A DNA stretch of 64,000 nt, taken from a virus (lineage: Duplodnaviria; Heunggongvirae; Uroviricota; Caudoviricetes). Below the pieces are notes generated by a model, which was given only the letters and a program-made list of their open reading frames with translations, was not told the origin of the DNA and searched no databases. Every line of letters begins with the position of its first letter. The stretch's first letter is position 1. The position numbers were made by a program, and so were the translations under genes. The stretch is from the IMG/VR virus record IMGVR_UViG_3300029705_000029. The stretch is one strand, 5' to 3'. This document shows positions 3,618 through 60,291 of this stretch, piece after piece.

Positions 3618-3637
3618 CATTAATTTTGTATTGTCAA
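3618..3637 (-). promoter_or_regulatory. Conserved motif copy (gene strand: TTGACAATACAAAATTAATG); class 1, where the motif supplies the -35 and TATAAT lies 17 nt downstream
   Basis: Minus strand TTGACA-atacaaaattaatgtgt-TATAAT upstream of 3271..3576; an 8-bp inverted repeat GGCTCTGA/TCAGAGCC abuts the -35. Confidence 0.6.
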
Positions 3638-3679
3638 GGCTCTGAGTGCAATTATTTTACAGTCAGAGCCATACAATTG

Positions 3680-6600
3680 TTAGAATTTTAGTCCATACCT
3701 TTTCTTAGCAACATCATCAAGCCATTGTGAATAAGGTTTAATTTTATCTACAATCATGCTATCTTCGCCTTCTTTTTTGCCAAGAATAGCTACCTGCTTG
3801 CCCTTTGCGATCAGATCTTGGAATTTTTGTAATGCATCAGGCCAGATCGTAACCTCTATGAGGCCATCTCCAGAATAGATATTTGCAAAAGCAAACTGAC
3901 TGCCAGTCTTTGTTTTCTTCTTCTGGATCTTAGATATAATGCCTACAATAACGCACTTATCGCCATTCTCATAAGACGTAAAATCATCAAGAATTTCATA
4001 TGCTTTGGCGAATGGATTTTCATCTGATACAAAGATTTGTAAAGTCTCAAACTCCCAGAATGCTTCATCTTGTAAGTATTTTGTATTGCACTCTTCAATA
4101 TATGTTTGGTATTTAAGCTTTTGCTCTTCATCAAACTTGGCTTTTTTCTTAGCGTTGTAGATTTCTAGCACTCGTTCTTTATCTACTTTGCGGCCAATCA
4201 TATATTCCGTTGTGTCAATGTCCCAGTCTAATAGTAGTTTTTGTTTCGTAGGCAAAGTTGCAACAGGCTTGTATTCACTTTGCTGATACATTGAACTGAG
4301 ATATTTAATTAGAAACTTCTTCTTGTTCTTGGTGGGAATTGCGCCTGATTTTACAAGATTGATAATCTGCGCTTTTGTTGGTTGCACTCTTTCAATAAAA
4401 TTATTCAGGTCTACAAATTTGCCATTAGCATTACGTTCATCAATAATTGATTCAGCTAACGTTTCGCCAATGCCAGTAATTGCAGAATATCCAAATAGAA
4501 TTTTATCGTTAGCAACGGAAAAATTCATTTCAGATTTATTGATGTTTGGAGGCAACACTTCTACGTCAAACTGCTTTGCATCTAGAATGTGCTTGTTGAT
4601 CATGCCAGGTTTGTTTTTGTTCATGTTAAAAAGCGCACTGAAGAAGTATTTACTATAATGACATTTCAAGTATGCAGTTTGCAGACATAGAACTGCATAA
4701 CTATATGAATGCGACTTGTTAAAGAGGTAGCCGCCTTTAGTTGAAAGATCATCGCTGATCTGTTGTGCAAGTTCTTTGCTGTAGCCATTGTCAATAATTT
4801 CCTGATACAGTTTCGCAGACTCTTGCTTGACTAGTTCAATATTCTTTTTACCAATGGCCTTTCTAAATAGGTCAGCACCGCCATAACTTCTACCACCAAA
4901 TTTTCTAACAATATCTAGCAATTGCTCCTGATAAATCATACACCCAAACGTTTCTTTGAGAATTGGTTCCATATCTGGATGAATGTATGTTACTCTTTCA
5001 GGATGTTTGCTGCATTCAATATATTCTTCAAGCGCACCCATAGAGTCTGGCCTATATAGTGCTAGAACTGCAGAAACCTGAGACAAGTCAGAAGGCTGAA
5101 GTCTTAAAAGCAGATCCTTCATACCAGCGCTTTCTACCTGAAAAACACCATTTGTCATTGCGCTACTAAGCAGCTTATATGAATCCACATCATATTCAAA
5201 TTTTGGGTTGTTAATGTCAATTTCCCAATCAGACACATGCGCCTCATTTTGTGTTTCTTGAACAAGACCAAGTGACGCAACGCCAAGAATATCGTACTTA
5301 ATAATGCCAACTTCTTCAACAACGCGCTTATCAACCTGAATTACGTGCTCGCCATCTTGTCCAAGTTTCATTGGCATAAAGTCTGTAACTTTGCCATCAA
5401 CAATACCAACGCCACCTGCGTGAATAGATGTTGTTTTTACACGACCAGAAAGATGACTTGCAATATCAAACAATTCTTTGTACTTTGGATTGTCAGCAGC
5501 TTCCTTATTGTTTTCCAAACACTCCTCAAATGTTGCATACACAAAACCCTTGCTGAGCTTGTCCATTTCTTTATATGGAAATCCAAGCACTTTGCCGACG
5601 TCTTTAAGTGCCACAACAGGTGTGATAAAAGAAAAGTTAATAATCTGACAAACACGATCTTCACCATATCTTTCAATAAGATAATTAACAACAGCTCCTC
5701 TATCAAATACATCTGTATCTGTATCTGGCATAGATACTCGTTCAGGATTTAGGAATCTCTGAAAAATTAGACCATATTTGATAGGATCAATGTCGGTAAT
5801 TTCAATGGCAAAGCATACAAGGCTTCCAGCACAACTACCTCTGCCAGCGCCAACTTTGTTGCCATTTTCTTTACACCATTTAATAAAGTCTGCAACAATC
5901 AAAAAGTAACCGTCAAATCCCATCTGATGAATTACGTCAAGTTCATAGTCAAGTCGCTCACGATAGATTTTTTGCTTTTCTTCGTCAAACTCATTAAACT
6001 TGCGCTTCTTCCAGCCTTCTTCGATAGAATGTCTAAGATACTCATAGTTATCATTAAATCCATCAGGAAGCGGGAACGTAGGTAGCTTTGGAGACTGAAA
6101 TGGCATGCCAACAATCTCGCACATGTCAGCTATTTCATTAGTGTTGGCTAGGCCAATATTTACTGCTTCAACACCAATGTGCTCGTCAAGTACGTTGTGG
6201 ATTTCTTCCTCTGACATCAGATAACAGTCATTATAGCTTTCAGACATTGTTTCTGAATCATGTGCAATCTGTACTAGACGGCCTTGATAGTACAGATCCT
6301 CTTTTGTCGCGGCGTGAGAATCTGTGGTTATAATCCATTTAGTATTGGTGTCTTTGGCGAGTTCCAGAATCTTGGCGTTATATTCTTCTTGATCCTGATT
6401 ATTGCCATGCGCTTGTAGTTCTAGATAAAAATGAGGGAACAATGCGCGATATTCGTTCACATATTCTAAGCACTTATTGTAATCTGACTCTCTGGACAAT
6501 TTTGATGCCAAACAAGCAGATGTAATTACTAGATCATTCGCATATGGGGCAATATCATGGATTGTCACACGTGGACGATAGTATTTGCCATGAAGTTCTG

Positions 6601-6913
6601 ATAGAGTGATGAGTTCATTGAGTGCAACACGACCTCGCTCGTTTCTTGCAATTGCAATAAGGTGGAAATATTTTGTATCCTTATTCTTCTCGTTGCGATC
6701 AAAACATTCGTAAAATTCTACACCATAAAGCATTTTTACCTCTGGATAGTCTTTTTTGAGCTTGTCAAAATAGCACCAAGAATAGGCGTTACCATGCTCG
6801 GTAATACAAAATGCCTTGAGGCCAATTTCTTTAGCACGTTTAAGATACTCTTCTGGTTTCGCGTAACCGTCAAGCAAAGAGTACATGCTGTGGTTATGAA
6901 GACTACTGTACAT
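3680..6913 (-). CDS. dnaE: DNA polymerase III alpha subunit (DnaE-type replicative polymerase with PHP domain)
   Basis: 1077 aa. N-terminal PHP motifs (HNHSMYSLLDG, CITEHGN) and the palm motif GRGSCAGSLVCFAIEITDIDP...PDTDTD. Confidence 0.85.
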   Translation of the reverse strand: MYSSLHNHSMYSLLDGYAKPEEYLKRAKEIGLKAFCITEHGNAYSWCYFDKLKKDYPEVKMLYGVEFYECFDRNEKNKDTKYFHLIAIARNERGRVALNELITLSELHGKYYRPRVTIHDIAPYANDLVITSACLASKLSRESDYNKCLEYVNEYRALFPHFYLELQAHGNNQDQEEYNAKILELAKDTNTKWIITTDSHAATKEDLYYQGRLVQIAHDSETMSESYNDCYLMSEEEIHNVLDEHIGVEAVNIGLANTNEIADMCEIVGMPFQSPKLPTFPLPDGFNDNYEYLRHSIEEGWKKRKFNEFDEEKQKIYRERLDYELDVIHQMGFDGYFLIVADFIKWCKENGNKVGAGRGSCAGSLVCFAIEITDIDPIKYGLIFQRFLNPERVSMPDTDTDVFDRGAVVNYLIERYGEDRVCQIINFSFITPVVALKDVGKVLGFPYKEMDKLSKGFVYATFEECLENNKEAADNPKYKELFDIASHLSGRVKTTSIHAGGVGIVDGKVTDFMPMKLGQDGEHVIQVDKRVVEEVGIIKYDILGVASLGLVQETQNEAHVSDWEIDINNPKFEYDVDSYKLLSSAMTNGVFQVESAGMKDLLLRLQPSDLSQVSAVLALYRPDSMGALEEYIECSKHPERVTYIHPDMEPILKETFGCMIYQEQLLDIVRKFGGRSYGGADLFRKAIGKKNIELVKQESAKLYQEIIDNGYSKELAQQISDDLSTKGGYLFNKSHSYSYAVLCLQTAYLKCHYSKYFFSALFNMNKNKPGMINKHILDAKQFDVEVLPPNINKSEMNFSVANDKILFGYSAITGIGETLAESIIDERNANGKFVDLNNFIERVQPTKAQIINLVKSGAIPTKNKKKFLIKYLSSMYQQSEYKPVATLPTKQKLLLDWDIDTTEYMIGRKVDKERVLEIYNAKKKAKFDEEQKLKYQTYIEECNTKYLQDEAFWEFETLQIFVSDENPFAKAYEILDDFTSYENGDKCVIVGIISKIQKKKTKTGSQFAFANIYSGDGLIEVTIWPDALQKFQDLIAKGKQVAILGKKEGEDSMIVDKIKPYSQWLDDVAKKRYGLKF

Positions 6914-6919
6914 ATCTAA

Positions 6920-6939
6920 CCACCCCTTTCATTAATTTT
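6920..6939 (-). promoter_or_regulatory. Conserved motif copy (GTGACAATACAAAATTAATG) immediately upstream of the dnaE ribosome-binding site
   Basis: The motif is followed by AAAGGGGTGG...ATG. Confidence 0.5.
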
Positions 6940-6945
6940 GTATTG

Positions 6946-8085
6946 TCACTTCACTACAACTAACATTTTACTAGCCCTTGTCACAGAAGTGTACAACCAT
7001 TTCTTATGATATTCCCTGTCGCCGAGCCACTCGTCATACACAACAACTTTATCAAACTCAGAACCTTGAGCCTTGTGGGTGGTAATTGCATATCCATAAT
7101 CAAATTCATAAGCCTTATGAACATCTTTGAACTTCCACCAATTGTCCTTATTTATAGTGCTTTCTTTGTCAATGAAGATTTTATAATCCATTTGCAAATT
7201 ATTGTATACTCCACCACTATTAGAAGTAAATTTAGCAATCATCTTTGGATTATACAACTTATCACTGCATAATTCAATGTCACTTACAATGCCTATCATG
7301 CCATTAATCAATGGTTCTTCATTACTACCAATTTCTTGCCATTCATTATGAAGACAAATAATTTTATCACCACCAATTGGCACACTAGCGCACTGATCTC
7401 CAAACTTAATTTTGCGCAACTTATCGTTCAAATAATGTCTGGTTGTATTTTTACCGCACAAAACTTGATCTGCACCCAACAAAAGTTTGTCAGATACGCT
7501 TTCCTGTGGAATTATCCTACACTCCTTTGGACCACCGTAATTAATCCATTTGCCATCACGAATATCCATACTAAGTCTAATAATAGGATTGTCTTGCGCC
7601 TGTCGCACGACTTCATCTAGCATTACGTGAGGATTATCTAGAATTGTACTAATACCATCTATTGGCGGCAACTGCCCAGGATCACCTAATGCAATAACAT
7701 GAACATGGTGAGATAGGAGCAATTCCCACATTTCTTGTGGTAACATACTGCACTCATCTAGTACAACAATCTTATAATTGTAATCTAAACTTTTCTTAGG
7801 TTTAAATTCATACGTTCTGTCTGGTTTTTCTTTGGCGTTATACAATAACCTGTGCGCAGTCATTGAGTTGTTACATCCCTTACTTCTCAGCACCAATGAA
7901 GCCTTGCCAGTGTAAGCAATATATACAACACTCGCTTCGTCAACACATAGTGCATCAATAATAAATTGTACGAGAGTAGACTTGCCGCTACCAGCATAGC
8001 CAGCAATCACCGTATACGGTTCTTTATTCTTATACCTCTCAACCGCTATTCTCAAACCTTTTTCTTGTCCGCTAGTTAAAACCAC
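6946..8085 (-). CDS. Dda/RecD-like SF1 DNA helicase
   Basis: Walker A GYAGSGKST, Walker B VVLDECSM and the C-terminal TTHKAQGSEFDKVVV motif. Confidence 0.75.
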   Translation of the reverse strand: MVLTSGQEKGLRIAVERYKNKEPYTVIAGYAGSGKSTLVQFIIDALCVDEASVVYIAYTGKASLVLRSKGCNNSMTAHRLLYNAKEKPDRTYEFKPKKSLDYNYKIVVLDECSMLPQEMWELLLSHHVHVIALGDPGQLPPIDGISTILDNPHVMLDEVVRQAQDNPIIRLSMDIRDGKWINYGGPKECRIIPQESVSDKLLLGADQVLCGKNTTRHYLNDKLRKIKFGDQCASVPIGGDKIICLHNEWQEIGSNEEPLINGMIGIVSDIELCSDKLYNPKMIAKFTSNSGGVYNNLQMDYKIFIDKESTINKDNWWKFKDVHKAYEFDYGYAITTHKAQGSEFDKVVVYDEWLGDREYHKKWLYTSVTRASKMLVVVK

Positions 8086-8602: not shown

Positions 8603-8688
8603 TTATCCATGCCATCACAAAAAAGCCAAACAATATGCCAATGGATAACCCATTTAATAGATTTTCCACATATATCACCCCCCGCCCC

Positions 8689-8707
8689 ATTAATTTTGTA
8701 CTGTTGT
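8689..8707 (-). promoter_or_regulatory. Conserved motif copy located in the transcribed leader (class 2)
   Basis: Upstream TTGACA-N16/17-TATAAT at about 8712-8740 (minus strand); the motif lies downstream of the -10. Confidence 0.5.
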
Positions 8708-10580: not shown

Positions 10581-10597
10581 AATTACAACCTCTTCTC

Positions 10598-10615
10598 ATT
10601 AATTTTGTACCGTGA
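10598..10615 (-). promoter_or_regulatory. Conserved motif copy (class 2) overlapping an 8-bp inverted repeat
   Basis: Upstream TTGAAA-N18-TATAAT; inverted repeat GTACCGTG/CACGGTAC. Confidence 0.5.
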
Positions 10616-18876: not shown

Positions 18877-20097
18877 TTAATTCCCAATCTCAATCAAATA
18901 CTTAATAGTCATCTGATCATTTCTATAAAACACAATTTCGTCATTTATCAGCATCCCCTTGTCCGCTTTTGCATGCAGACAATTACATTTAGGATTCTTG
19001 TTCTGCAGTACATTGTAGTTCAAATGATAACAACTACTATCATGCTGGTATACAACATAAGGAGTTCCATAGGCCACTTCAAACAACGCCATGTAAGCGA
19101 CATTGTTTCCACCATGTGCCCAATAAGAACCAGACAGCGAGGTGTATCCAATGGACTTTTGACACTTAGGGGCAAAGTAGATTCCATCTGAAAACATGGA
19201 GCCTGTGTATACAGCATTACTAGGACGAATCATAAGGCCAGTTTTAATAATGGAAAACCAATTCTCACTGCGGCTACCATGAAACAGCAATCTGGTGTCC
19301 TGAATATCATTCTCAGCAATAAACTTATCAAAGCGTTCCTGAGTCTTAAGGTTCTTAACTCTCCAAGCCCTTCTAAACTTGCCAGCGGATTCATTCATAA
19401 GCTTCTTAATGAGCGCAATATCATCCGCAGTAGTTTCTTCCATTTCAAGTCCAAGTTCTTCAAGAATAGTTTGCTGTTTCTTTTCTACATGCTCAACAGG
19501 TTCATGCTCAGGTTTCACATAAATCTGACCGCGCATAACGTCAAGAAGATCCTGTTCTTTGGAAATAATCTGTGCAAAGTCTTCTACTTTATCAGCTAGA
19601 TAATCTCTGACATTGCCCATCTTTCTCGGAATTACCGTAAACAGTTTGAGCAGCTTGTCATTGAACGCTTCGATTGTAGCATCGCCATTTGCCAGCTCAT
19701 CAATGATCTTCTGAGCCGCATCAACCATATCCTGAGTAACAGCAGATGCTTGAACGGTATAGTTCTTCTGAATGGTTTCGCGAGCTAGACCCTGAAGCTT
19801 TTCTACGATAGCTTTGATTGCTGCGTTTTCAATGTCTCTGTAATGGCTTTCAGGATTGGCAGAAGAGATTTTCTCTACCAAATCCTGCTTTAGGTCTGTT
19901 ACATCTTGATATCCCTTATTAAGCTTACTGGAAATTTGCGTGTTCCATTTAGACATGGGATAATATCTTGTGGTTTTAGTTGCATCAACTCGTCCGTACT
20001 CGACTCTAAACTGGTCACCTTCTGGAAAAAGATTATAATACTTATTGTTATTCGCAGTTGTAACCATAATAAGATAAGTGGGTCTAATCTCTGCCAT
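18877..20097 (-). CDS. Poly/mono-ADP-ribose polymerase-like protein (WGR domain plus PARP catalytic domain)
   Basis: The N-terminus has a WGR-like FRVEYGRVDATKT segment. The C-terminus reads LLFHGSRSENWFSIIKTGL...YTGSMFSDGIYFA...YMALFEVAYG, matching the PARP H-G-S / Y / E catalytic signature. Confidence 0.7.
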   Translation of the reverse strand: MAEIRPTYLIMVTTANNNKYYNLFPEGDQFRVEYGRVDATKTTRYYPMSKWNTQISSKLNKGYQDVTDLKQDLVEKISSANPESHYRDIENAAIKAIVEKLQGLARETIQKNYTVQASAVTQDMVDAAQKIIDELANGDATIEAFNDKLLKLFTVIPRKMGNVRDYLADKVEDFAQIISKEQDLLDVMRGQIYVKPEHEPVEHVEKKQQTILEELGLEMEETTADDIALIKKLMNESAGKFRRAWRVKNLKTQERFDKFIAENDIQDTRLLFHGSRSENWFSIIKTGLMIRPSNAVYTGSMFSDGIYFAPKCQKSIGYTSLSGSYWAHGGNNVAYMALFEVAYGTPYVVYQHDSSCYHLNYNVLQNKNPKCNCLHAKADKGMLINDEIVFYRNDQMTIKYLIEIGN

Positions 20098-20560: not shown

Positions 20561-20580
20561 CATTAATTTTGTATTGTTAC
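20561..20580 (-). promoter_or_regulatory. Conserved motif copy, upstream of the DHH gene
   Basis: Motif followed by TATAAAGGAG. Confidence 0.5.
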
Positions 20581-22960: not shown

Positions 22961-22980
22961 CATTAATTTTGTATTGTCTA
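22961..22980 (-). promoter_or_regulatory. Conserved motif copy, class 1 (TAGACA-N17-TATAAT)
   Basis: Upstream of the metallophosphatase gene. Confidence 0.55.
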
Positions 22981-23242: not shown

Positions 23243-23260
23243 CCTTAATTTTGTATTGTT
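23243..23260 (-). promoter_or_regulatory. Conserved motif copy
   Basis: Upstream of 23035..23232. Confidence 0.45.
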
Positions 23261-26310: not shown

Positions 26311-26330
26311 CATTAATTTTGTACTGTTAG
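26311..26330 (-). promoter_or_regulatory. Conserved motif copy (class 2)
   Basis: Upstream TTGTTT-N17-TATATT; motif directly before the AAGAAGGAAA ribosome-binding site. Confidence 0.5.
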
Positions 26331-28587: not shown

Positions 28588-28606
28588 TATTAATTTTGTA
28601 TTGTTA
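28588..28606 (-). promoter_or_regulatory. Conserved motif copy
   Basis: Upstream of 28381..28575. Confidence 0.45.
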
Positions 28607-29657: not shown

Positions 29658-29678
29658 CATTAATTTTGTATTGTCAAG
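29658..29678 (-). promoter_or_regulatory. Conserved motif copy, class 1 (TTGACA-N17-TACAAT)
   Basis: Upstream of the primase gene. Confidence 0.55.
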
Positions 29679-31402: not shown

Positions 31403-31428
31403 ACATATTTCCCCTTTCCATTAATTTT

Positions 31429-31446
31429 GTACTGTTATTATACCAT
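31429..31446 (-). promoter_or_regulatory. Conserved motif copy
   Basis: Upstream of the cysteine desulfurase gene. Confidence 0.45.
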
Positions 31447-34232: not shown

Positions 34233-34979
34233 TTAGTACTCGAACTCGATAACAGTTACAGCGTTGGAAACACTGAGAGCTGCATCAACTTCAGTTTCAA
34301 ACTCATTAATCTCGTCCATGAGATTTTCCATAAGGTTAGTGACGCCAAGCGGGTCAATTAGGTCATAAGTATTGTTCGTAATGTAATCCTTGCGAAGAGC
34401 CTTCATTGCATCACTATCGATAGCCATCTTAGAATCCTTAGGCTGAGCCTGGATTACAGACAGCACATACTGTTCAGCTCGCTTTTCAATGGCTTCGCCA
34501 CTATTACGATCAAGCTCAACATATGCTGCGCGATAGTTGTCTACAATGCGCTGACGAAGAATCTTCTTGTATTCCATGCCGTGATTCTTCTCTTCGATAG
34601 CCTCAGCGACCGTCATTTCCTTTTCGCCAACTACAACCTTGGTGGTTGCATTGGAAATCACAACAGCTCGCTTCATTGCGTCACGACGCGCAATTAGAGA
34701 CTGAACCTTCTGGTAAGCACTCTTGATGTTTTCCTTGAACTCGGCCACGGTAACTCCGTTAACCTTTTCTGCTGAGTGCTTAACTGCCATCGCGTAAGGA
34801 TGTGCGTTAATTGCCTTTAGGATGCGATCATCCATAGTCTTGAGTTCTGCAAGTGCCTTGTGAACCGTCATCTTTTCCTGAGTCATTTTCTTGTACCCCC
34901 TAATAAGCTTTGAATCATTAATTTTGTACTGTTTCCCTTGAACTGGAATTAGTATATCACACATTCCATATTCTGTCAA
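34233..34979 (-). CDS. Hypothetical protein
   Basis: 248-aa ORF; sigma-70-like promoter TTGACA-N17-TATACT at 34950-34980 plus the conserved motif upstream. Confidence 0.5.
   Translation of the reverse strand: MTEYGMCDILIPVQGKQYKINDSKLIRGYKKMTQEKMTVHKALAELKTMDDRILKAINAHPYAMAVKHSAEKVNGVTVAEFKENIKSAYQKVQSLIARRDAMKRAVVISNATTKVVVGEKEMTVAEAIEEKNHGMEYKKILRQRIVDNYRAAYVELDRNSGEAIEKRAEQYVLSVIQAQPKDSKMAIDSDAMKALRKDYITNNTYDLIDPLGVTNLMENLMDEINEFETEVDAALSVSNAVTVIEFEY
34917..34937 (-). promoter_or_regulatory. Conserved motif copy (class 2)
   Basis: Upstream TTGACA-N17-TATACT at about 34950-34980. Confidence 0.5.
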
Positions 34980-36507: not shown

Positions 36508-36625
36508 TCATTGACCCAACTTTCTGCTCCTTGTATGCTTGCATCAGAGGCCAGGACGCTCTCTCCGTATTGGGTCGGAGTACGTATATTTCACTACTCA
36601 CGTGTCTGTTCGCGAAACAGCATGT

Positions 36626-37051: not shown

Positions 37052-37072
37052 CATTAATTTTGTACTGTCTTG
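37052..37072 (-). promoter_or_regulatory. Conserved motif copy (class 2) heading the tRNA array
   Basis: Motif followed by GGGAGG and the 24-aa mini-ORF, then tRNA-Lys. Confidence 0.5.
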
Positions 37073-37505: not shown

Positions 37506-37526
37506 CATTAATTTTGTTTTGTTCAA
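37506..37526 (-). promoter_or_regulatory. Conserved motif copy (variant)
   Basis: Upstream of 37145..37489. Confidence 0.4.
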
Positions 37527-38410: not shown

Positions 38411-38430
38411 CATTAATCTTGTATTGTCAA
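38411..38430 (-). promoter_or_regulatory. Conserved motif copy, class 1 (TTGACA-N17-TATAAT)
   Basis: Verified spacing on the minus strand. Confidence 0.55.
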
Positions 38431-40659: not shown

Positions 40660-40694
40660 GTTGCCACCTCCACTTTCTGTCGGTATTATACTCC

Positions 40695-40715
40695 ATTAAT
40701 TTTGTATTGTCAAGC
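40695..40715 (-). promoter_or_regulatory. Conserved motif copy, class 1 (TTGACA-N17-TATAAT)
   Basis: Upstream of 39997..40659. Confidence 0.55.
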
Positions 40716-41978: not shown

Positions 41979-41996
41979 TATTAATTTTGTATTGTT
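41979..41996 (-). promoter_or_regulatory. Conserved motif copy
   Basis: Upstream of the Sak4-like gene. Confidence 0.45.
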
Positions 41997-43473: not shown

Positions 43474-43495
43474 ACCATTAATCTCCTTTTACGCC

Positions 43496-43513
43496 ATTAA
43501 TCTTGTGTTGTTA
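43496..43513 (-). promoter_or_regulatory. Conserved motif copy (variant CTTGTGTTG)
   Basis: Upstream of 43132..43473. Confidence 0.4.
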
Positions 43514-43757: not shown

Positions 43758-43776
43758 CATTAATTTTGTGTTGTAA
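43758..43776 (-). promoter_or_regulatory. Conserved motif copy
   Basis: Upstream of 43511..43720. Confidence 0.45.
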
Positions 43777-44141: not shown

Positions 44142-45110
44142 TTACACAAAATCCTTAAAGCGATGTGCTAAATTATCTACGTAGCTATCTGACTGAAATC
44201 CATACTTTTCAGCTAACTGCCTACCATCTTCAGATCTTAAAAAGCTTTTAAGCTCAAGCCCTGTTTCTTGCATGCCTTGAACTAAATAATGGTACATGCC
44301 GCTGATGTGTATGTTTTTCATTGTTAGGCTGGGGATACCAACTAGATCTCTGAAGTTTTGCAGTTTTCTATACACCCATCTAAAATTGCGGTCATCAGAA
44401 TCTGCGGCATGTGCATTATCTCTTTCCTTGTATAGTCTGCCAACTCCAATGAGTTTTTTAACTCTCAAGGATTCTCCATAACACATATATTCAACTTCAT
44501 CGAACGCTTTTGTCAAAAGTTCATACAGTCTATCTGTCAATTGAACCACTCTTCCGTCAGAGAAATATAATGATTTCTCCCTTGAATTGACCATAGATCT
44601 ATCAATCTTCACCAAGTCATTCATACTTGGTCCAGAAATGCCCTCCCATAAGCACTCTAAGATTGCCTTGTCAGTCCAATTGTATAACTGACCCTCGATT
44701 TCAGTTATTTCTTCTCTACTTAAGAATTTCATGCTATCAGGTGGAACGCATGGCTTTAATAAATCTATTGTAATACTATTATATGAGTCCGTTGTTTTAT
44801 CTTTATGATAATACTTTCTCCATGCGCAATATGCTTTTAGAATTACGTTGTAATTCATAAGCACATAAACCGATTTTGCCTTAAATTCTTTATACATTTC
44901 TAAAGATTCTGCGTTATTGAACTGACTGCAATCTTTATTATTTTTTTCTTCAAAAGGTTCTGTTTTTCTGAATAGACTATATAAAGACGTTCTGGCTACC
45001 ACCCTTGACCTTAAATAATCGTTTATAAAACCTTCTTTCATGTCAGATTGATACATTGATATTGCCACCCCTTTGTGGATTATTATATATGACGAACATG
45101 TGTTTGTCAA
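44142..45110 (-). CDS. Hypothetical protein (possible divergent integrase-like fold)
   Basis: 322 aa; lies adjacent to a tyrosine recombinase; the catalytic motifs are not clearly retained. Confidence 0.45.
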   Translation of the reverse strand: MTNTCSSYIIIHKGVAISMYQSDMKEGFINDYLRSRVVARTSLYSLFRKTEPFEEKNNKDCSQFNNAESLEMYKEFKAKSVYVLMNYNVILKAYCAWRKYYHKDKTTDSYNSITIDLLKPCVPPDSMKFLSREEITEIEGQLYNWTDKAILECLWEGISGPSMNDLVKIDRSMVNSREKSLYFSDGRVVQLTDRLYELLTKAFDEVEYMCYGESLRVKKLIGVGRLYKERDNAHAADSDDRNFRWVYRKLQNFRDLVGIPSLTMKNIHISGMYHYLVQGMQETGLELKSFLRSEDGRQLAEKYGFQSDSYVDNLAHRFKDFV

Positions 45111-45130: not shown

Positions 45131-46156
45131 TTAAATCATACCATCCAAAATATTCGCTGCCTTTTTCTGCTTTTCCTTGGACAGTTCAGCATATCTTTGC
45201 GTGGTTGATACATTTTTATGATGCAGCTGTTTAGCGCACAAATAAATATCACCAGTCGCTTCGTACAAGTTAGTCGCGCAAGAATGTCGCATTACGTGAG
45301 GCGTAACATGCTTATCGGTTGCCCCTTTTGCATATTTGTCCATCATGTCCTTGACTGTTCTTACGTCCAGTCTTGTGTTTCGCTGAGTGACAAACAATGC
45401 ATCATTGTCCGCAGCATTAAAATACAGTTCACGATCTTTAAGCCACAATTTGATTTGTGTTTTAAGATTATCGCCGATTACTACGCAAGCGTCATGATCA
45501 CCCTTTTCTGTAATATAGATTTGATTATGCTCCAAATCCAAATCGCTAATATCGATTTGTACAATAGCAGAAATTCGTAGACCAGTTGCAAACCCAAGTT
45601 TCAAAAGACACAAATCTCTATTTATTAGCTTTTCGTTTGCTGTCTGTTCTACATTTTTCAGAATTTTTGCGATTTCTTCTGAGGTCAAAAAAGTTACATT
45701 AGGATTGTCTTTCATCTTCGGTCTTGATGTATTGCTTACTGGATTTGTGTCAATATAATCAGGCACCAAAAACTGAAAAAACGAGTTAAGCGCGGACCAA
45801 TTCGTTGTCTTATAGCTATCGGATGTCCTTTCGGTTTTTCCATTAGTTGATTTAGTTCTCAAAGAAGAAATGTACCTGTTAATATGGCTAGTATTTACAT
45901 CAAGATAGAATTCTTCTGGACATTTCACCTTAAATGTAAATTTAATAAATCGAATTACACTTGAAATGTATTCTTTTGCCGTTCTATATGATTTGCCTGC
46001 ACCAATTAGACTGTACCAGTAATCAGTCAAAATAGACGGCATACCTTGTATATTTTTCATAACATTTTGTTCAATCTGCATTTCATTTTCAAATCTACCA
46101 CTCAACGTAACGGCCTCCTTTTTCGATCTTCTTCTTTCTCCAGCTGAAAAAAACAT
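45131..46156 (-). CDS. Tyrosine recombinase (XerC/XerD / phage-integrase family)
   Basis: GLRISA (box I Arg), HVMRHS (HxxR) and LHHKNVSTTQRY (Tyr nucleophile). Confidence 0.7.
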   Translation of the reverse strand: MFFSAGERRRSKKEAVTLSGRFENEMQIEQNVMKNIQGMPSILTDYWYSLIGAGKSYRTAKEYISSVIRFIKFTFKVKCPEEFYLDVNTSHINRYISSLRTKSTNGKTERTSDSYKTTNWSALNSFFQFLVPDYIDTNPVSNTSRPKMKDNPNVTFLTSEEIAKILKNVEQTANEKLINRDLCLLKLGFATGLRISAIVQIDISDLDLEHNQIYITEKGDHDACVVIGDNLKTQIKLWLKDRELYFNAADNDALFVTQRNTRLDVRTVKDMMDKYAKGATDKHVTPHVMRHSCATNLYEATGDIYLCAKQLHHKNVSTTQRYAELSKEKQKKAANILDGMI

Positions 46157-46989: not shown

Positions 46990-46997
46990 TATACCTC

Positions 46998-47018
46998 ATT
47001 AATTTTGAATTGTCAAGA
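46998..47018 (-). promoter_or_regulatory. Conserved motif copy, class 1 (TTGACA-N17-TATAAT; duplicated TTGACAAT)
   Basis: Upstream of 46723..46989. Confidence 0.55.
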
Positions 47019-49416: not shown

Positions 49417-49428
49417 CTCAATTAATTT

Positions 49429-49448
49429 TGTACTGTTTAATGCTGATG
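49429..49448 (-). promoter_or_regulatory. Conserved motif copy
   Basis: Upstream of 49063..49416. Confidence 0.45.
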
Positions 49449-50114
49449 AAACACAACTGCTTTGAGCGCTTTAGACCAACATGCGCCACAAGCCGAGCAA
49501 GTAGATTCTCTTCCAGGACATACGAACGCGTTCTTAGGAAAGTCAGGATTCAAACGCTTGTCGTTAAAATCTACATACGCAACACCCAGTCCATGAGGAT
49601 TAGGAACTTCCCACAGCTTGTCCCAAGCGGAAAACATGATATTAAGATTGTCAGGCAGTTTTCCGTTCTTGTCAATGTAGTCATTTACAAGTTCGTACTG
49701 CTTAGTAAACGCCATGTATTTAGTGCTAGGAGTTTTCTTACACAGATCCACAAGTCTTACCAGAAAAGCCATATCAGGGAAATCACCGCTATCGAAAATT
49801 CTCACCTTAGGAAGTCCAGAAAACTTTACCTTGTAATAAACCTGTTCAAAGAAATTGTCAGGATCGTCATAGTACAGTCTAAGGTTTCTGTAATATGCTG
49901 CCTGTACATTCGCCATTTGCTGAAATCCCTTACATGCATAGCAAGTTGACTTACAAGGTGCATCATTACGACAAGTACATACTGGAAATGCAAGATTCAA
50001 ACAAGCTGCGCCAGTCTTGCTGTTCTTATTAGCCATGTTAATTTCATTACTCTTGTTTGCGAGAAAATCAATATACTCCTGTTTAGTTGCAAAAAATTCT
50101 TTATTCTGTTTCAT
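49437..50114 (-). CDS. Hypothetical multi-Cys protein (start trimmed to the Met at 50114)
   Basis: Cys clusters CTCRNDAPCKSTCYAC and CSACGAC; GGGAGG ribosome-binding site before the internal ATG. Confidence 0.45.
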   Translation of the reverse strand: MKQNKEFFATKQEYIDFLANKSNEINMANKNSKTGAACLNLAFPVCTCRNDAPCKSTCYACKGFQQMANVQAAYYRNLRLYYDDPDNFFEQVYYKVKFSGLPKVRIFDSGDFPDMAFLVRLVDLCKKTPSTKYMAFTKQYELVNDYIDKNGKLPDNLNIMFSAWDKLWEVPNPHGLGVAYVDFNDKRLNPDFPKNAFVCPGRESTCSACGACWSKALKAVVFHQH

Positions 50115-50118
50115 GTTA

Positions 50119-50400
50119 TTATACCTCCCATTTTTCCATTTCTCTTTTAATTTCTCCATCAAACGGTTCATCTTCCAAGCTAACTCCATATGCCATGTAA
50201 ATAGCTTCAAGAATCATATCAGCAAACCCAATAAGTCCGTTCCAGCACAGATATTCTGCAAGAAATTCCTTACCAGACATGGATAAAATCTTTTCGTCTG
50301 GGGTAGTGTCATCTTCATCATAACCGAGGCGCTGACGCATATCCTTCATGACGAATTCGGGAATTCCAGGATGCTTGTCAATATAATAGTTAATATCCAT
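50119..50400 (-). CDS. Hypothetical protein
   Basis: ORF track. Confidence 0.4.
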   Translation of the reverse strand: MDINYYIDKHPGIPEFVMKDMRQRLGYDEDDTTPDEKILSMSGKEFLAEYLCWNGLIGFADMILEAIYMAYGVSLEDEPFDGEIKREMEKWEV

Positions 50401-51926: not shown

Positions 51927-52421
51927 TTAGCCACCCCATCTCAAATTAGTCCACTTTCCATCATAGCAACCATATCGTCCGCCCACAATCATTTTATACA
52001 CTGCACACAATCCTTCGTTCCACTTGTCACGGCTACCCTTGAACACGGTCATAGGATAAATCTGTTCTTTATAACTATCACCGCTACCAACATAATCAAG
52101 AAACCAGATGTCTTCAATTTGCTTTGCCTTATATACCATTGCTGGTTCAAGCGCCAAAAAAATCTTTTGACCATTGATATCAATTACCTTTTGAAGTCCA
52201 AAGTCCAATTCAAACTTTGCGTTTCCAACATCTTCATCGTCGCAATCATAATCATTGTACTCTGCTTCTCCGTTTATAGTGGCGACGATCTCTGTTGCAA
52301 AAGTCCTCATTAAACTTGTATTGTTACATAGAATGATGATGTTTTCTGTGATTGGACACAAAAGATTATTGTCGTCTTTCGTATCAAATCTTTCGTGATT
52401 AAATTTGATGCCGTTTACCAT
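51927..52421 (-). CDS. Hypothetical protein
   Basis: ORF track. Confidence 0.45.
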   Translation of the reverse strand: MVNGIKFNHERFDTKDDNNLLCPITENIIILCNNTSLMRTFATEIVATINGEAEYNDYDCDDEDVGNAKFELDFGLQKVIDINGQKIFLALEPAMVYKAKQIEDIWFLDYVGSGDSYKEQIYPMTVFKGSRDKWNEGLCAVYKMIVGGRYGCYDGKWTNLRWGG

Positions 52422-53139: not shown

Positions 53140-53140
53140 G

Positions 53141-53367: not shown

Positions 53368-54300
53368 TTAATAGCCCTTTACTCCAAGCTCATGCATTCT
53401 ATTAGCATAGTTGAAATTATTGTCCTTAATTACCTTCTTCATCAGCGCAAACATTCTCCAACCTTCTCCCCTATATTCGTTAAGCTTGTATTTAAGCTCC
53501 TGCATAGACCCATAATTGGTAAGCGTTCCATTGTTATCTTTAATTACACAGTCGTGATACATTACCAGATTCTTAAGCGTATAATAAGCACCTTCTCCCT
53601 TGAAAGCATCAACCCATGCCTTGCTTTTGCGAGTTTCATAAGGAAGCTTAATCATGTCCTTCATAAAGTCCTTAAGATAACCATACAGTGAAGCGTAACT
53701 AACTGCATACTTAAGATACACAATCTTACTCATCAGCGGACGATACAGTTTCTTGTTCAAATCCTCTACAAAGATGTCAATTCCATTTACTCTCTTGTAA
53801 GGAACTCCCTTGCACTTCTTAGTAGGAAGCTTATCAACATAATCCTTGAGTTTTTCCACATAATCACATGCCACATCAATAACAACTTCCTTGGTGAAGA
53901 AGTGGCTTCTTTCATCAAAGCTTTCCTTGTCGCTGATTTCAAGGCAGCTAAGCACTCTTACTTCTTCGAGCATCATATCGAAAGTGTACTGATAGCCGTA
54001 CATTCTATGAAGGTAATCAGTGTAGCCCTCATGCATTCCATCATAGGACTTCCAATTCAACATCTGGAACATCTGAGCCATTACGAACCTTCTGTGAAGC
54101 TTGGTGTTCCTTACATATCCATTGGCGATAATCTGTTCTACAATGGGATCGGGTTCTTTGCCATTAACCACCACAGGCTGTCCATTTTCATCAATAATCA
54201 GATGAATCTTGGTTCCATTGTCAAGGTCCACAGTGAAGTACTTGCTGGTGTTGATGCCTGCCTGGTTCAATTTTTCCATTCTTTCTTTCTTGTTCAACAT
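53368..54300 (-). CDS. Hypothetical protein (first gene of the cassette flanked by the repeat array)
   Basis: 310-aa ORF. Confidence 0.5.
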   Translation of the reverse strand: MLNKKERMEKLNQAGINTSKYFTVDLDNGTKIHLIIDENGQPVVVNGKEPDPIVEQIIANGYVRNTKLHRRFVMAQMFQMLNWKSYDGMHEGYTDYLHRMYGYQYTFDMMLEEVRVLSCLEISDKESFDERSHFFTKEVVIDVACDYVEKLKDYVDKLPTKKCKGVPYKRVNGIDIFVEDLNKKLYRPLMSKIVYLKYAVSYASLYGYLKDFMKDMIKLPYETRKSKAWVDAFKGEGAYYTLKNLVMYHDCVIKDNNGTLTNYGSMQELKYKLNEYRGEGWRMFALMKKVIKDNNFNYANRMHELGVKGY

Positions 54301-54320: not shown

Positions 54321-54818
54321 TTAATTATTTTCAATCCACTTTCTTAGAATTACTAGATCTTTATCATTCTTTGACTGGTAAAACCACTTACCCATAGTCT
54401 TTTCATCCCACACAAAGCTGCCTTCAAGCGCAATGCATAGGATAAATCCTTCAAGCCGTGCTTTTGTAATCTCCCTCCTGTTCGCCAAAAATAATCTTTC
54501 ATCAGGAATCTCTTCAATTGGCAGCGCTTTGAAGTATGTTCGTCTCTTATTATCACTCCTTTCACTTGGTAGAGAATACTTATATCTGTCATATAATACA
54601 TCAATCGTTCCAAGAACAAGTTCCATCGTTGTAGGATCTCCTTTACGATTAAACAAATTCCTTGAAGTATCATATTCTCCGTTCTTAATCAGATAATCAT
54701 TGCCGACTTTCATTGTTCGCTTCTCAAAGTCAATATGGAACGTCTCTCCGTTTTCAACTCTTAAAAGCAGCTCTTCATAAATTGTCATTGTCTTACCTCC
54801 TTTTTGATAGATGCTCAA
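54321..54818 (-). CDS. Hypothetical protein (second gene of the cassette flanked by the repeat array)
   Basis: 165-aa ORF; GGAGGTAAGACA ribosome-binding site. Confidence 0.5.
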   Translation of the reverse strand: MSIYQKGGKTMTIYEELLLRVENGETFHIDFEKRTMKVGNDYLIKNGEYDTSRNLFNRKGDPTTMELVLGTIDVLYDRYKYSLPSERSDNKRRTYFKALPIEEIPDERLFLANRREITKARLEGFILCIALEGSFVWDEKTMGKWFYQSKNDKDLVILRKWIENN

Positions 54819-54821
54819 CAG

Positions 54822-54937
54822 TTTTGGTATATATCTTTAGAAGTCTCATATATCCTGAAGCGAGGCTCGTATTGGAGGCAGCCCCTGAAAGATAATTCGG
54901 CTGGCAGCCTCCTAATGCGAGACGTTATAGCTTCAGG
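54822..54937. repeat. Structured repeat unit B0 (partial box TTTAGAAGTCTCATATATCC plus a hairpin closed by CCTGAAGC/GCTTCAGG)
   Basis: Hairpin core contains CTGAAAGATAATTCGGCTGGCAGCC. Confidence 0.45.
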
Positions 54938-55098
54938 AAATTGAATCAACTGCCTTGCTATCTACTGCTATACTGCATAGATTACTCATAATACTGGTGT
55001 GTTCCTTTACCTGTTTCATGTTTGACTGCGCATGCCAGATTTAAGGCCATGATGGCAGGATGATAACCCTGCGATCTGGCCTGTGATCTGGGTTAATG
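54938..55098. repeat. Structured repeat unit B1 (box ...ATTACTCATAATACTGGTGTGTTCCTTTACCTGTTTCATGTTTGA plus a hairpin closed by GACTGC/GCAGTC)
   Basis: Hairpin core GGATGATAACCCTGCGATCTGG. Confidence 0.5.
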
Positions 55099-55268
55099 AG
55101 CAGTCGTCTGAATTCTATTACCTTGTAATCCATCGTCACACTACGAATTAAATTACTCAACAACATTGGTGCATTTCTCTAGTTGTTTCATATAAGAGGC
55201 AAATGCCTGCGTGAGAGACGGGATAATTCTGAGGTCTCAGTGTGTTATCCCGTTGGGCACGCAGGTCT
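55099..55268. repeat. Structured repeat unit B2 (box ...ATTACTCAACAACATTGGTGCATTTCTCTAGTTGTTTCATATAAGAGG plus a hairpin closed by CCTGCGTG/CACGCAGG)
   Basis: Hairpin core GGGATAATTCTGAGGTCTCAG. Confidence 0.5.
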
Positions 55269-55470
55269 ACTTGCCTTCTATTGAATCTAGTTGTCTTGTA
55301 ATTCACTGTTGCACTACATCATTACTCATAGCCATTGTGCGTTTCTTTAACTGTCTCATATTGGGGAATTATTTCAGCGACCTGGCATGGGAGCTGGAGC
55401 AATTTGAAACTTGCGTGCGCCTTCAAAGTGATAGCGACTAGGCGCAGCCAGTTTCAATGCGTAATAATTC
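55269..55470. repeat. Structured repeat unit B3 (box ...ATTACTCATAGCCATTGTGCGTTTCTTTAACTGTCTCATATTGGGG plus a ~104-nt hairpin closed by GGAATTATT/AATAATTCC)
   Basis: Hairpin core contains GTGATAGCGACTAGGCGCAGCC. Confidence 0.5.
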
Positions 55471-55526
55471 CCCAGTTGAATCTCGGCTACATTGTAATTT
55501 GCTTTTGTCGCACTCCAAAATGTCAA

Positions 55527-56786
55527 TCACATGCTTCTCACCAAAGTGTCATAAACTGCTCTGTTTGTGAGGATTGCATTCTGCATGCAGCGGATTGACA
55601 GATAACCGTCAATTTCCTTGTCGGTTTTATTTCTGTTCGCCGCTACATTTTTGCCCGTCCCTCTTAAGATGGTGTAATCTTCTTTATCACTTACACTACC
55701 AAGACCTCCAATCTTTTTCTTATTTGTTGCACAGGCTCTAATGCAATCCATTACGAACTGATTCAAAATGTCAATATCTTTTTGTACATTAATGATGGGA
55801 AGCACTGAAGTTGCCCACGAATACTTGCCATCTCCTTTATACAAATAAGATTGAACTTGATTGAGCGCTCGCTTCATGGAAATATTGCGCTGCTTGATTG
55901 TCCGAGATTCAATCTCTTTTTGAAAACTCTTTACGCGAGACTTGGCAAGTGTAATTTGATTTCCTTTGATATAGAAACCAAGGAACTTAAACCACCTGTC
56001 TTTCGTAAGAATCTCAACTTTCTTTGGATTCAATTCGAGTTCCATTTCATCAAGCATTCTCTTAATGGCTGCGTATGCTTGCTCCCACTCATTTCCTAGT
56101 GCCAACAAATCATCTGAATATCTAACATAGTAAACATTCATATCACTTATTGCCTTGTCAATGGGATACAACACTGCATCAGCCAAGAAGCTTGCCACAG
56201 CGCAACCTTGTTTCAAAGACTGATAATGTTCAATCAGTTCTCCATTGAAGTCAAAGCACAAATCTGCATGATAGTATTTCCTTACAACATCAATGATCTT
56301 TGACTTACCAACTTTCGATTCCATTCTGTCAAAGATGTCATCAATGTATCTGATAGGAACCCTATCAAAATACTTGGTCAGGTCTGCTTTCAGTCCAACC
56401 TCGCGAGTCTTTGTATTAATCACCTGCCTTGATACTTCCTGTACAATCTTGCCGCAACCAATGCCGCTTTGGTATGATTTGCAACTCTTATGAACGAACT
56501 CAGGAAACATCTCAAAGAACAAATTGTTTGCAATGGATAAGAAGATTCGGTCTACATTTTCATTAACGTAAACAATTCTCATATCTCCATTGTCTTTAGG
56601 AATCTGTGCTTGGTGCGGCGGAGCGATTTCGTAATTATCAGTGATAATTGCATTGTACAGCGCAAGTCTAACTTCTGGAGATGTAAGTTTTCTTAATTCT
56701 CCCTTGTCGATGTGCTTGTCGACACCAACTTCAAGTGCCTGCTCCCAGCGTTCAGTTTCAAAAAACTTCTTCAACAAAATGTCCAA
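55527..56786 (-). CDS. Reverse transcriptase (group II intron/DGR-like RT domain; no maturase or endonuclease domain evident)
   Basis: IPKDNGDMRIVYV (RT motifs 1-2), LKQGCAVASFLADAVL (motif 4), YVRYSDDLLALG (motif C, YxDD) and WFKFLGFYI (motif 7). Confidence 0.8.
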   Translation of the reverse strand: MDILLKKFFETERWEQALEVGVDKHIDKGELRKLTSPEVRLALYNAIITDNYEIAPPHQAQIPKDNGDMRIVYVNENVDRIFLSIANNLFFEMFPEFVHKSCKSYQSGIGCGKIVQEVSRQVINTKTREVGLKADLTKYFDRVPIRYIDDIFDRMESKVGKSKIIDVVRKYYHADLCFDFNGELIEHYQSLKQGCAVASFLADAVLYPIDKAISDMNVYYVRYSDDLLALGNEWEQAYAAIKRMLDEMELELNPKKVEILTKDRWFKFLGFYIKGNQITLAKSRVKSFQKEIESRTIKQRNISMKRALNQVQSYLYKGDGKYSWATSVLPIINVQKDIDILNQFVMDCIRACATNKKKIGGLGSVSDKEDYTILRGTGKNVAANRNKTDKEIDGYLSIRCMQNAILTNRAVYDTLVRSM

Positions 56787-56808
56787 ATTTTCACCTCCCG
56801 TATTAATT

Positions 56809-56828
56809 TTGTGTTGTTACTTTAATAC
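56809..56828 (-). promoter_or_regulatory. Conserved motif copy directly upstream of the RT gene
   Basis: Motif followed by GGGAGGTGA...ATG. Confidence 0.45.
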
Positions 56829-58940: not shown

Positions 58941-58960
58941 CATTAATCTTGTACTGTCCA
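58941..58960 (-). promoter_or_regulatory. Conserved motif copy upstream of the HNH endonuclease gene
   Basis: Variant CATTAATCTTGTACTGTCC. Confidence 0.45.
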
Positions 58961-59481: not shown

Positions 59482-59493
59482 AGTTACAACTCC

Positions 59494-60090
59494 TTACTCA
59501 ATCAAGTCGTAAATTTCATTTCCGTATCTGCAAACAAAGTTTACCTTATTCATTTCCTCAATGACATAATCAATATCTTCAATTGCAATCTCTCCAAGGT
59601 CATATCCAATATCGGTTATGTTGTCAAGCGTTTTCGGTTCAAATTCATCGCCATATTCTGCGATTTCTTCGTTGTAATGTTCAATGCAATCGTAATAATA
59701 GAATACGCTGTTATGAATCACCTCGTCATCAAGGTCAATTTCAATATCGCCCTCACTCCAATACTGAAGTTCTTCCATTCCCTTTTCACTTAGTGCAATG
59801 AGACCGCGGTTTCTGCTATAGTCTTCCTTTTTGAAAGTTTCATTCGGATAAAGTTTCTGAATGTAATCAAACTCATAAGCGTCACCTCGAATGCCGCCAC
59901 CATTATCTTCGCAGAATCGAATCAGTCTGAGCAAGAGTGCGCTTTCGCTTTCATCTTCGCTGTTGTAAATGCAGTTTACTATGTCTCTTGCTTCCATCAG
60001 TGCACTGTGACTGTATGCGCTCCAATGAAAGTAAATCTTGCACAAGTCCTTGCCACATCTATTAACTGTTACAACCAATCTCTGTCCCAT
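59494..60090 (-). CDS. Hypothetical acidic protein
   Basis: ORF track. Confidence 0.45.
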   Translation of the reverse strand: MGQRLVVTVNRCGKDLCKIYFHWSAYSHSALMEARDIVNCIYNSEDESESALLLRLIRFCEDNGGGIRGDAYEFDYIQKLYPNETFKKEDYSRNRGLIALSEKGMEELQYWSEGDIEIDLDDEVIHNSVFYYYDCIEHYNEEIAEYGDEFEPKTLDNITDIGYDLGEIAIEDIDYVIEEMNKVNFVCRYGNEIYDLIE

Positions 60091-60092
60091 AT

Positions 60093-60275
60093 TTATTCTC
60101 CTTTCTTTGCACCATCAATAATTTCCATTATATCTTCAAATGGATCTCTAAAATGTTCGGTGGTATCAAGTCTTGCGCAGTATGTGTCAACACCATCGTA
60201 GAACTTGTCTCTTAATCGTTGTATTTTTTTATATTCTTTTTCTGTTATTGTTATCACGCACTTCGCTCCTTTCAT
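60093..60275 (-). CDS. Hypothetical protein
   Basis: ORF track. Confidence 0.35.
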   Translation of the reverse strand: MKGAKCVITITEKEYKKIQRLRDKFYDGVDTYCARLDTTEHFRDPFEDIMEIIDGAKKGE

Positions 60276-60291
60276 TAATTTTGTACTGTTT
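60273..60291 (-). promoter_or_regulatory. Conserved motif copy
   Basis: Upstream of 60093..60275. Confidence 0.45.

Follow-up and report, generated by a model that had tools for sequence, protein, structure and literature searches.

What reads the 17-nucleotide (nt) motif that recurs, always in one orientation, along a 64,000-nt stretch of an uncultured phage of the Caudoviricetes (IMG/VR virus record IMGVR_UViG_3300029705_000029; this whole stretch is called the window below)? Our answer is that the phage's lysogeny master repressor probably uses the motif as its operator, which would make the motif the counterpart of SPBRE (SPbeta repeated element) in Bacillus phage SPbeta or of the repressor box in phage phi3T. 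Established here are the census of the motif, its tight association with promoters, the presence of a repressor homologue in the window and an architecture that matches SPBRE. The system as such is already known in Bacillus phages, and the motif is most likely a new example of it in an uncultured clade.

A conserved motif in a single orientation

At up to two mismatches, CATTAATTTTGTAYTGTY has 26 matches in the window, where dinucleotide-preserving shuffles had 0.08 on average and never more than 1. All 26 share one orientation and lie on the plus strand, antisense to the genes; the plausible genes of the window are all on the minus strand. Read on the gene strand, the motif is (A/G)ACA(A/G)TACAAAATTAATG. 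An earlier note on this DNA, made from the letters alone, had described about 25 copies upstream of minus-strand genes. This count agrees with ours, and the coordinates given for the copies were correct to within 1 nt.

Tabulated by position, the 26 copies share a conserved block with sharp edges, positions 2-18, which reads ACA-R-T-ACAAAATTAAT-G. It is 17 nt long and asymmetric. Outside the block there is no conservation upstream, and downstream solely a purine-rich ribosome-binding site (RBS). The same block limits were found in 262 distinct instances, collected from the window and from loci of related contigs. The exact 17-mer is present in at least 110 stretches of IMG/VR contigs of related, uncultured phages, many of these contigs being 150-170 kb long. 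Across contigs whose MrpR-like proteins (see below) share only 48-82% identity the motif is unchanged, while its flanks diverge.

Promoter and ribosome-binding-site context

Under strict criteria, 17 strong sigma-A-like promoters were found on the gene strand of the window and one on the opposite strand; 14 of the 17 carry the motif. For the classification of individual copies, a sigma-A-like score of at least 10 out of 12 was used as threshold. Such a promoter accompanies 15 of the 26 copies, and none was found at the other 11 (Table 1).

In class 1 (n = 6), the motif supplies the ACA of the -35 hexamer and most of the 17-nt spacer, in a fixed register. The six copies placed in this class by the earlier note were exact, with TTGACA or TAGACA, a 17-nt spacer, and TATAAT or TACAAT. 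In class 2 the promoter lies upstream of the motif, which begins 1 to 23 nt after the -10 of the strong promoters. Here the earlier assignments held for the copies at 8688, 10597, 34916 and 37052, but not for 26311, which has a weak promoter only; the copies at 23243, 31419, 37506, 43758 and 60273 are further members. The commonest class 2 register (-10, 1 nt, ACA; 30 of 59 cases) places the predicted transcription start inside the motif.

Both promoter contexts are real, as previously claimed, but the 11 copies without a promoter at the threshold form a third group, class 3. These are mostly intercistronic and abut RBSs. They are kept at orthologous sites while the flanking coding sequence diverges, and are therefore probably functional. 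Among the 262 instances, the RBS of classes 2 and 3 mostly follows the motif at a distance of -1 to +5 nt, and not at the 5-12 nt proposed before. The occurrence of one sequence in several registers relative to the promoter bears out the view that a sequence-specific factor is at work, rather than plain recognition by the polymerase.

A repressor homologue encoded in the window

Proteins of the MrpR/YopR/SroF type have a tyrosine-recombinase fold with a degenerate active site and include the master repressor of SPbeta, where SPBRE is the box bound experimentally by MrpR (PMC10516654). In phi3T, SroF binds as a monomer to an asymmetric box of 24-26 bp with many dispersed sites, and the structure of the complex has been solved (bioRxiv 10.1101/2025.11.27.690993).

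The window encodes a homologue of these repressors, so that, among the candidates of the earlier note, a phage transcription factor is the supported one. Phmmer against PDB sequences matched the 304-amino-acid protein to YopR/MrpR (E ~4e-12) and to chain 9rd5_H (2e-10). In Pfam it matched MrpR_N_CB with 43.3 bits against a cut-off of 27, and no match to Phage_integrase was found. It aligns over its full length with YopR of SPbeta and with phi3T_97, an annotated yopR-like open reading frame (ORF) that is presumably SroF, at 20-22% identity. In all three proteins Arg is absent at the expected active-site positions. At the places of the active-site Arg residues in a canonical recombinase, the window protein has EGISG and NIHISG, as in YopR.

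The repressor gene has a strong promoter of its own, about 25 nt upstream of the start codon, which is one of the three motif-free promoters among the 17. A motif-free promoter precedes the repressor gene also in five relatives (L130-L133 and L089), and in a sixth an imperfect reversed copy of the motif lies in the spacer of this promoter. A motif-free promoter of its own, together with operators on the lytic promoters, is the pattern expected of a master repressor that is expressed in the lysogen. As in SPbeta, the repressor gene adjoins a yopP-like recombinase.

Reverse-oriented, imperfect copies relative to the nearest genes were seen at L074:6618-6634 and L001:6563-6579, within or after sigma-A promoters of opposite-strand genes; two instances are too few to be weighed. 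One of the two occupies the promoter spacer of an MrpR-like gene, which may reflect autoregulation in that phage.

Proposed mechanism and points against it

Homology and architecture suggest that the MrpR-like protein binds the motif and thereby represses. In a lysogen, it would be made from its own motif-free, unregulated promoter and would occupy the 17-18 bp box, probably as a monomer; the non-palindromic motif fits the binding of monomeric SroF to an asymmetric box. With the box on the -35 and spacer, or at about -5 to +35, covering the start site and the early transcribed region, the host polymerase would be excluded or trapped. The replication and early lytic operons would as a result be silent in the lysogen. 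The promoter-less copies between cistrons could act as extra roadblocks to read-through transcription, which is a speculative, if reasonable, guess. Polymerases reading through from the constitutive repressor promoter, for instance, would meet the copies at 43758, 43495 and 41979.

Several points weigh against an operator of this kind. Promoter occlusion alone does not account for the 11 of 26 copies without a promoter at the threshold. Nearly all copies are co-directional with transcription, a bias that an operator in double-stranded DNA does not need. One conserved copy, with no promoter near, lies between the stop codon of a Zn-ribbon ORF that follows a polymerase gene and an intrinsic terminator. 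With 26 copies in 64 kb, the motif is far denser than the approximately 10 MrpR peaks reported over the 134 kb of SPbeta, and the likeness of the box to SPBRE is no better than that of column-shuffled controls, 424 of 2000 of which score as high. In addition, another DNA-binding protein of the phage could be the one that reads the motif.

The promoter-less copies, conserved at orthologous sites and with counterparts among the phi3T boxes, might be a second kind of functional site, an idea that we hold only tentatively and regard as rather unlikely. One possible version is that the MrpR-like repressor silences a prophage of ~150 kb partly by dozens of oriented intra-operon roadblocks or RNA-level operators, in addition to its action at promoters. 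In the other, the same element might be read twice, by the repressor in lysogeny and by a YonO-like transcription machinery in lytic growth.

A YonO-like polymerase and a candidate late promoter

YonO is the single-subunit, two-barrel RNA polymerase of SPbeta. Relatives that have both the motif and genes in common with the window encode a 944-amino-acid homologue of it (Pfam RdRP, E 4.7e-15); this gene lies outside the window, among whose ORFs no sigma factor or polymerase was found with PHROGs and Pfam. By tblastn, the YonO-like protein matches yonO of SPbeta-like phages, Clostridium phage c-st and Enterocloster phages. The late operon is the one operon of SPbeta that depends on YonO, and it has one start site; the YonO promoter sequence is undefined (PMC5467207). 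The published start (B. subtilis coordinate 2225998) could not be placed on the SPbeta record, as the coordinate offset was too uncertain.

In each of the 13 polymerase loci analysed, a conserved copy of the motif follows closely on the polymerase and Zn-ribbon genes, where it heads the late region. A strong intrinsic terminator follows within a few bases, its stem kept by compensatory changes. Past the terminator lies a different, invariant block of 20 nt, CAAAATAGTAATGATATAAG, which occurs once per genome and has diverging flanks. It is located ~25-30 nt after the terminator and ~45-60 nt before the first late gene (ClpP-like). This block is a candidate late promoter, possibly of the YonO type, and a better candidate than the motif. 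Being single-copy, it fits a single YonO start better than does a motif with 26 copies in the early and replication region.

In phi3T and in the SPbeta-like phage Goe12, CAACATAAAAACTTG stands twice in the yonN-yonK spacer, and ATATATAAG follows one of the two copies.

Alternative explanations

Could the motif itself be the promoter of a YonO-like single-subunit polymerase, or of a host polymerase that a phage factor redirects? Transcription would then start near the 3' end of the motif, and where sigma-A promoters overlap it, genes would be expressed both early and late. This explanation was the one first favoured. A contiguous, strictly co-oriented 17-mer just before RBSs resembles the promoter of a single-subunit polymerase, relatives with the motif encode the YonO homologue, and the promoter-less copies would be accounted for. 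Furthermore, the YonO promoter is undefined in sequence, and the YonO start in SPbeta is placed similarly to the conserved copy past the polymerase and Zn-ribbon genes (PMC5467207). The explanation was downgraded by the MrpR homologue, the match to the SPBRE architecture and the separate late block after the terminator, and we now consider it improbable. YonO of SPbeta serves the late operon only, from one start (PMC5467207), whereas the motif clusters in the early and replication region. The late-operon copy runs straight into a terminator, with the better candidate CAAAATAGTAATGATATAAG beyond it, and in at least 10 contigs a hairpin with a T-run follows directly, within ~5 nt after the motif. 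In addition, the motif is joined to sigma-A hexamers in a fixed register, as is the experimentally defined SPBRE.

The promoter association shows only that a DNA-level factor is likely, and the motif might be the site of another phage regulator, such as a repressor, an activator or a nucleoid-type protein. SPbeta-like phages encode several helix-turn-helix regulators and many ORFs of the window are without annotation, but within this family the MrpR/SroF operator is the sole precedent for a dispersed, asymmetric box of this kind, and an MrpR homologue with a motif-free promoter is present in the window; we regard a different regulator as unlikely. No support was found for an anti-sigma factor or appropriator, a further suggestion of the earlier note, as most copies have no -10 at a fixed distance. 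An element acting in the mRNA, either a translational operator or enhancer in the leader by the RBS or a processing site of a sequence-specific ribonuclease, would suit the short distance to the RBS in most class 2 and 3 instances, the strict co-orientation with genes and the conservation of promoter-less copies. It misfits class 1, in which the motif lies upstream of the predicted start and would be absent from the RNA of that promoter, and the commonest class 2 register, with its predicted start inside the motif. Moreover, some class 1 copies, judged by eye, precede non-coding sequence and not an RBS and ORF, other copies precede terminators, and an Rfam scan of the window at gathering threshold yielded tRNAs and one drum RNA, none of them at a motif copy. 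An mRNA element thus appears quite improbable. That no dedicated factor exists, the motif being an extended promoter consensus or having spread by recent duplication or gene conversion, is hardly credible. The class 1 copies are indeed perfect sigma-A promoters, yet 11 copies are without any strong promoter and at least three registers relative to the hexamers occur, so that the motif is not merely an extended consensus, as the earlier note had also held. Nor does it vary where the MrpR-like proteins and the flanks do.

Individual copies and associated features

Table 1. Copies of the motif in the window, with the repressor locus and the candidate late promoter of relatives (RBS, ribosome-binding site; ORF, open reading frame)
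Feature	Position	Strand	Context
Motif copy	3269..3286	-	No sigma-A promoter; intercistronic; TAA inside motif is stop codon of upstream ORF 3271-3576; GGAGG directly after, then thymidylate-synthase-like gene; conserved at orthologous site in L023, L047, L066, L085
Motif copy, class 1	3618..3635	-	TTGACA-N17-TATAAT, motif as -35 and spacer; hairpin just upstream
Motif copy, promoter-less	6930..6947	-	
Motif copy, class 2	8688..8705	-	Upstream TTGACA-N16-TATAAT; motif begins 4 nt past -10
Motif copy, class 2, 2 mismatches	10597..10614	-	Upstream TTGAAA-N18-TATAAT; motif begins 6 nt past -10
Motif copy	20561..20578	-	No strong promoter; TATAAA in class 1 register, no TTG before ACA; upstream of phosphatase-like gene
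Motif copy, class 1	22961..22978	-	TAGACA-N17-TATAAT; terminator-like hairpin upstream
Motif copy, class 2	23243..23260	-	Upstream TTGACA-N17-TATAAT; motif begins 17 nt past -10; RBS overlaps 3' end of motif
Motif copy	26311..26328	-	Weak upstream promoter only (TGgTATATT, poor -35); RBS 4 nt downstream
Motif copy	28588..28605	-	No promoter of at least 10/12; TAAAAT abuts motif; RBS directly after
Motif copy, class 1	29658..29675	-	TTGACA-N17-TACAAT; upstream of primase-like gene 28604-29617
Motif copy, class 2, tight register	31419..31436	-	TTGACA-N16-TATAAT, 1 nt, ACA; predicted sigma-A start inside motif; NifS-like gene downstream
Motif copy, class 2	34916..34933	-	Upstream TTGACA-N17-TATACT; motif begins 18 nt past -10
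Motif copy, class 2	37052..37069	-	Upstream TTGACA-N17-TATAAT; motif begins 23 nt past -10; heads small ORF and tRNA cluster
Motif copy, class 2	37506..37523	-	Upstream TTGACA-N17-TATTAT; motif begins 14 nt past -10
Motif copy, class 1	38411..38428	-	TTGACA-N17-TATAAT
Motif copy, class 1	40694..40711	-	TTGACA-N17-TATAAT; intrinsic terminator directly before
Motif copy	41979..41996	-	No promoter; hairpin directly before; AAA_24 (yorG-like) gene downstream
Motif copy, 2 mismatches	43495..43512	-	No promoter at threshold; intercistronic, downstream of repressor gene
Motif copy, class 2, 2 mismatches	43758..43775	-	Upstream TTGACA-N17-TATAAT; motif begins 19 nt past -10
Motif copy, class 1	46997..47014	-	TTGACA-N17-TATAAT; heads operon running into recombinase and repressor genes
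Motif copy	49420..49437	-	No promoter; begins at stop codon of ORF 49437-50210; GAGG directly after
Degenerate motif copy, 2 mismatches	52308..52325	-	Inside ORF 51927-52421; no RBS after; doubtful as a functional site
Motif copy, 2 mismatches	56801..56818	-	No promoter; upstream of UG27-type reverse transcriptase gene
Motif copy	58941..58958	-	No promoter; GGAGG directly after; upstream of HNH endonuclease gene
Motif copy, class 2, weak -35	60273..60290	-	AAGACA-N18-TATAAT; motif begins 3 nt past -10
MrpR/YopR/SroF-like integrase-fold protein gene, 304 amino acids	44145..45056	-	PDB sequence search, Pfam, alignment
Strong promoter of repressor gene, motif-free	45082..45110	-	TTGACA-N17-TATAAT
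Canonical tyrosine recombinase (yopP-like)	45131..46156	-	Pfam Phage_integrase, E 1.2e-35; R..HxxR..Y residues in translation
Block CAAAATAGTAATGATATAAG, candidate late promoter	L112:13787-13806		Same site in L113, L116, L117, L119, L120, L123, L124, L040, L049, L057, L102

The phage and its relatives

The window encodes DnaE, an SF1 helicase, an NAD-dependent ligase, a RecJ-like DHH protein, a primase, DnaB, an AAA_24 protein, a thymidylate synthase, fragments of a ribonucleotide reductase with a homing endonuclease, and two integrase-like proteins, along with eleven tRNAs and one drum RNA. The gene order parallels that of SPbeta and phi3T, with yopP-yopR, yorG, yorI, yorK and yorL followed by genes of nucleotide metabolism. 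Contig L085 is identical to positions 1-4833 of the window and extends upstream. At L085:1988-3973, 3.1-5.1 kb past window position 1, it encodes a large serine recombinase of 662 amino acids with Resolvase, Recombinase and Zn_ribbon_recom domains, likely the SprA-like integrase of the window phage. The gene order, the YonO homologue of the relatives and the serine recombinase in the overlapping contig together indicate an SPbeta-like, temperate phage. Its host is probably, though on weak grounds, a member of the Clostridia in a ruminant or gut community.

Many contigs with the motif have genes that are 65-83% identical in nucleotide sequence to genes of the window. There is no close cultured relative. 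When 10 kb of the window were compared by megablast with cultured phage genomes, no match was found, and a search of the same genomes with the 34-nt class 1 consensus matched generic sigma-A promoters only. At that sensitivity, the motif is therefore absent from cultured phages. One scan of bacterial genomes with a 27-mer class 1 pattern returned two metagenome-assembled contigs only, so that no prophage integrated in a named host was recovered. The class 1 motif-promoter sequence was seen in L136 (JAFUOX010000026.1), a 94-kb contig in a Kiritimatiellae metagenome-assembled genome bin from roe deer rectum, which is probably a mis-binned phage contig of the clade of the window.

A variant of the motif with G for T at position 14 (...ACAAAATGAATG) has several copies each in L095, L032, L067, L027 and L065; a recurrent box variant is also given as ...AAATGAATG. 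The position-14 variant could represent a specificity shift that has spread across copies.

Other features of the window, all on the minus strand unless stated, are listed here for completeness. A reverse transcriptase of the defence-type class UG27 is encoded at 55527-56786 (PADLOC RT_UG27, E 2.7e-204), with the reverse-transcriptase-associated proteins RTas346 at 54321-54818 and RTas337 at 53368-54300. The phage thus carries a DRT-type system. Between the reverse transcriptase and the associated genes, ~700 nt (54819-55526) are without a minus-strand ORF of at least 60 amino acids and could hold a non-coding RNA. The 11 tRNA genes form a cluster at 32640-36947, and the drum RNA is at 35651-35760 (Rfam RF02958, 68.6 bits). 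A tRNA match of 136 nt in Rfam at 32775-32910, uncalled by ARAGORN, may be an interrupted tRNA. The ORF of a GIY-YIG-type homing endonuclease (123-962) adjoins a fragment of the ribonucleotide reductase large subunit (1121-1936), which suggests a split or intron-interrupted gene, as in SPbeta. Finally, a protein of 406 amino acids with a PARP catalytic domain (Pfam E 1.2e-21) is encoded at 18877-20097, in a block of small ORFs without motif copies.

Implications

If the motif is indeed the operator of the MrpR-like protein, master repression by an SPbeta-type integrase-fold protein extends beyond Bacillus phages, to a large clade of uncultured gut phages of ~150-170 kb that probably infect Clostridia. 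It would also provide a pair of operator consensus and repressor with which to study how monomeric SroF-type proteins read DNA, for example by comparing the 17-bp site here with the 24-26 bp box of phi3T. The promoter-less copies by RBSs would become a question for SPbeta-family phages, too, and the single-copy conserved block would be a concrete candidate for a YonO-type late promoter.

Comparison with known operator systems

The closest counterpart is SPBRE, for which we took the boxes from the SPbeta record at promoter regions with MrpR peaks in chromatin affinity purification sequencing (ChAP-seq; PMC10516654). As in class 1, the box ACAAATACAAATAATATGTATA is joined to a TAGACA -35 at yonP, yorE, yorZ and yosX and extends into TATAAT. 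The order at yonX, yopM and yopV is promoter, box and directly the RBS, as in class 2. Both systems have a dispersed, non-palindromic, A-rich box that points the same way as the genes, homologous repressors of the integrase fold encoded beside a yopP-like recombinase, and SPbeta-like genomes with a YonO-type polymerase. SPBRE differs in having ~22 conserved nt, compared to 17-18 here, and about 10 to a dozen sites in 134 kb, compared to 26 copies in 64 kb. In contrast to SPbeta, a large share of the copies here is promoter-less, the phage is uncultured with a host that is probably a member of the Clostridia, and binding is predicted. By eye, GACAAATACAAATAATATG (SPBRE) and GACAATACAAAATTAATG (motif) match at 14 of 18 positions with one gap, and a profile comparison was not significant, the observed score being reached by the 424 of 2000 column shuffles mentioned above. 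We claim the same architecture and the same protein family for the motif and SPBRE, not homology of the boxes.

In SPbeta (NC_001884, L128), a 17/17 match to the aimR-type SPBRE ACAAATACAAAAAATAT was seen within the 3' end of yonO, at ~61378-61399 on the minus strand. It lies ~20 nt before the yonO stop codon and the annotated terminator stem-loop, a parallel to the relatives of the window phage, in which the polymerase operon is followed by a motif copy and then a terminator.

Promoters of T7-type single-subunit polymerases, and that of YonO, resemble the motif as contiguous blocks of ~17-23 nt, co-oriented and just upstream of genes, and a phage polymerase is encoded in the relatives. However, unlike T7-type promoters, the motif is fused in a fixed register with host-type hexamers, sometimes stands directly before a terminator, and is concentrated in the early region. 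The operators of the C1 repressor of phage P1 are likewise asymmetric 17-bp sites at many dispersed promoters of a large temperate phage. They occur in both orientations, and C1 has a fold unrelated to that of the MrpR-like proteins and belongs to a different host lineage.

The SroF box of phi3T (Phi3TRE), CAGTAATTTTATTTTTATTCTTAATG, is unrelated to the motif in sequence. A match of the motif to its ends (CAGTA...TTAATG) was discarded, being in the opposite orientation relative to the genes. The phi3T box is longer (24-26 bp) and, instead of occupying the spacer, usually borders the -35 on the upstream side. It is nevertheless of the same kind, a monomer-type, asymmetric box co-oriented with genes, of which we counted ~20-30 core copies in phi3T. 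Several of these stand directly before an RBS without an evident promoter, as in class 3. This type of promoter-less placement is therefore not peculiar to the window phage.

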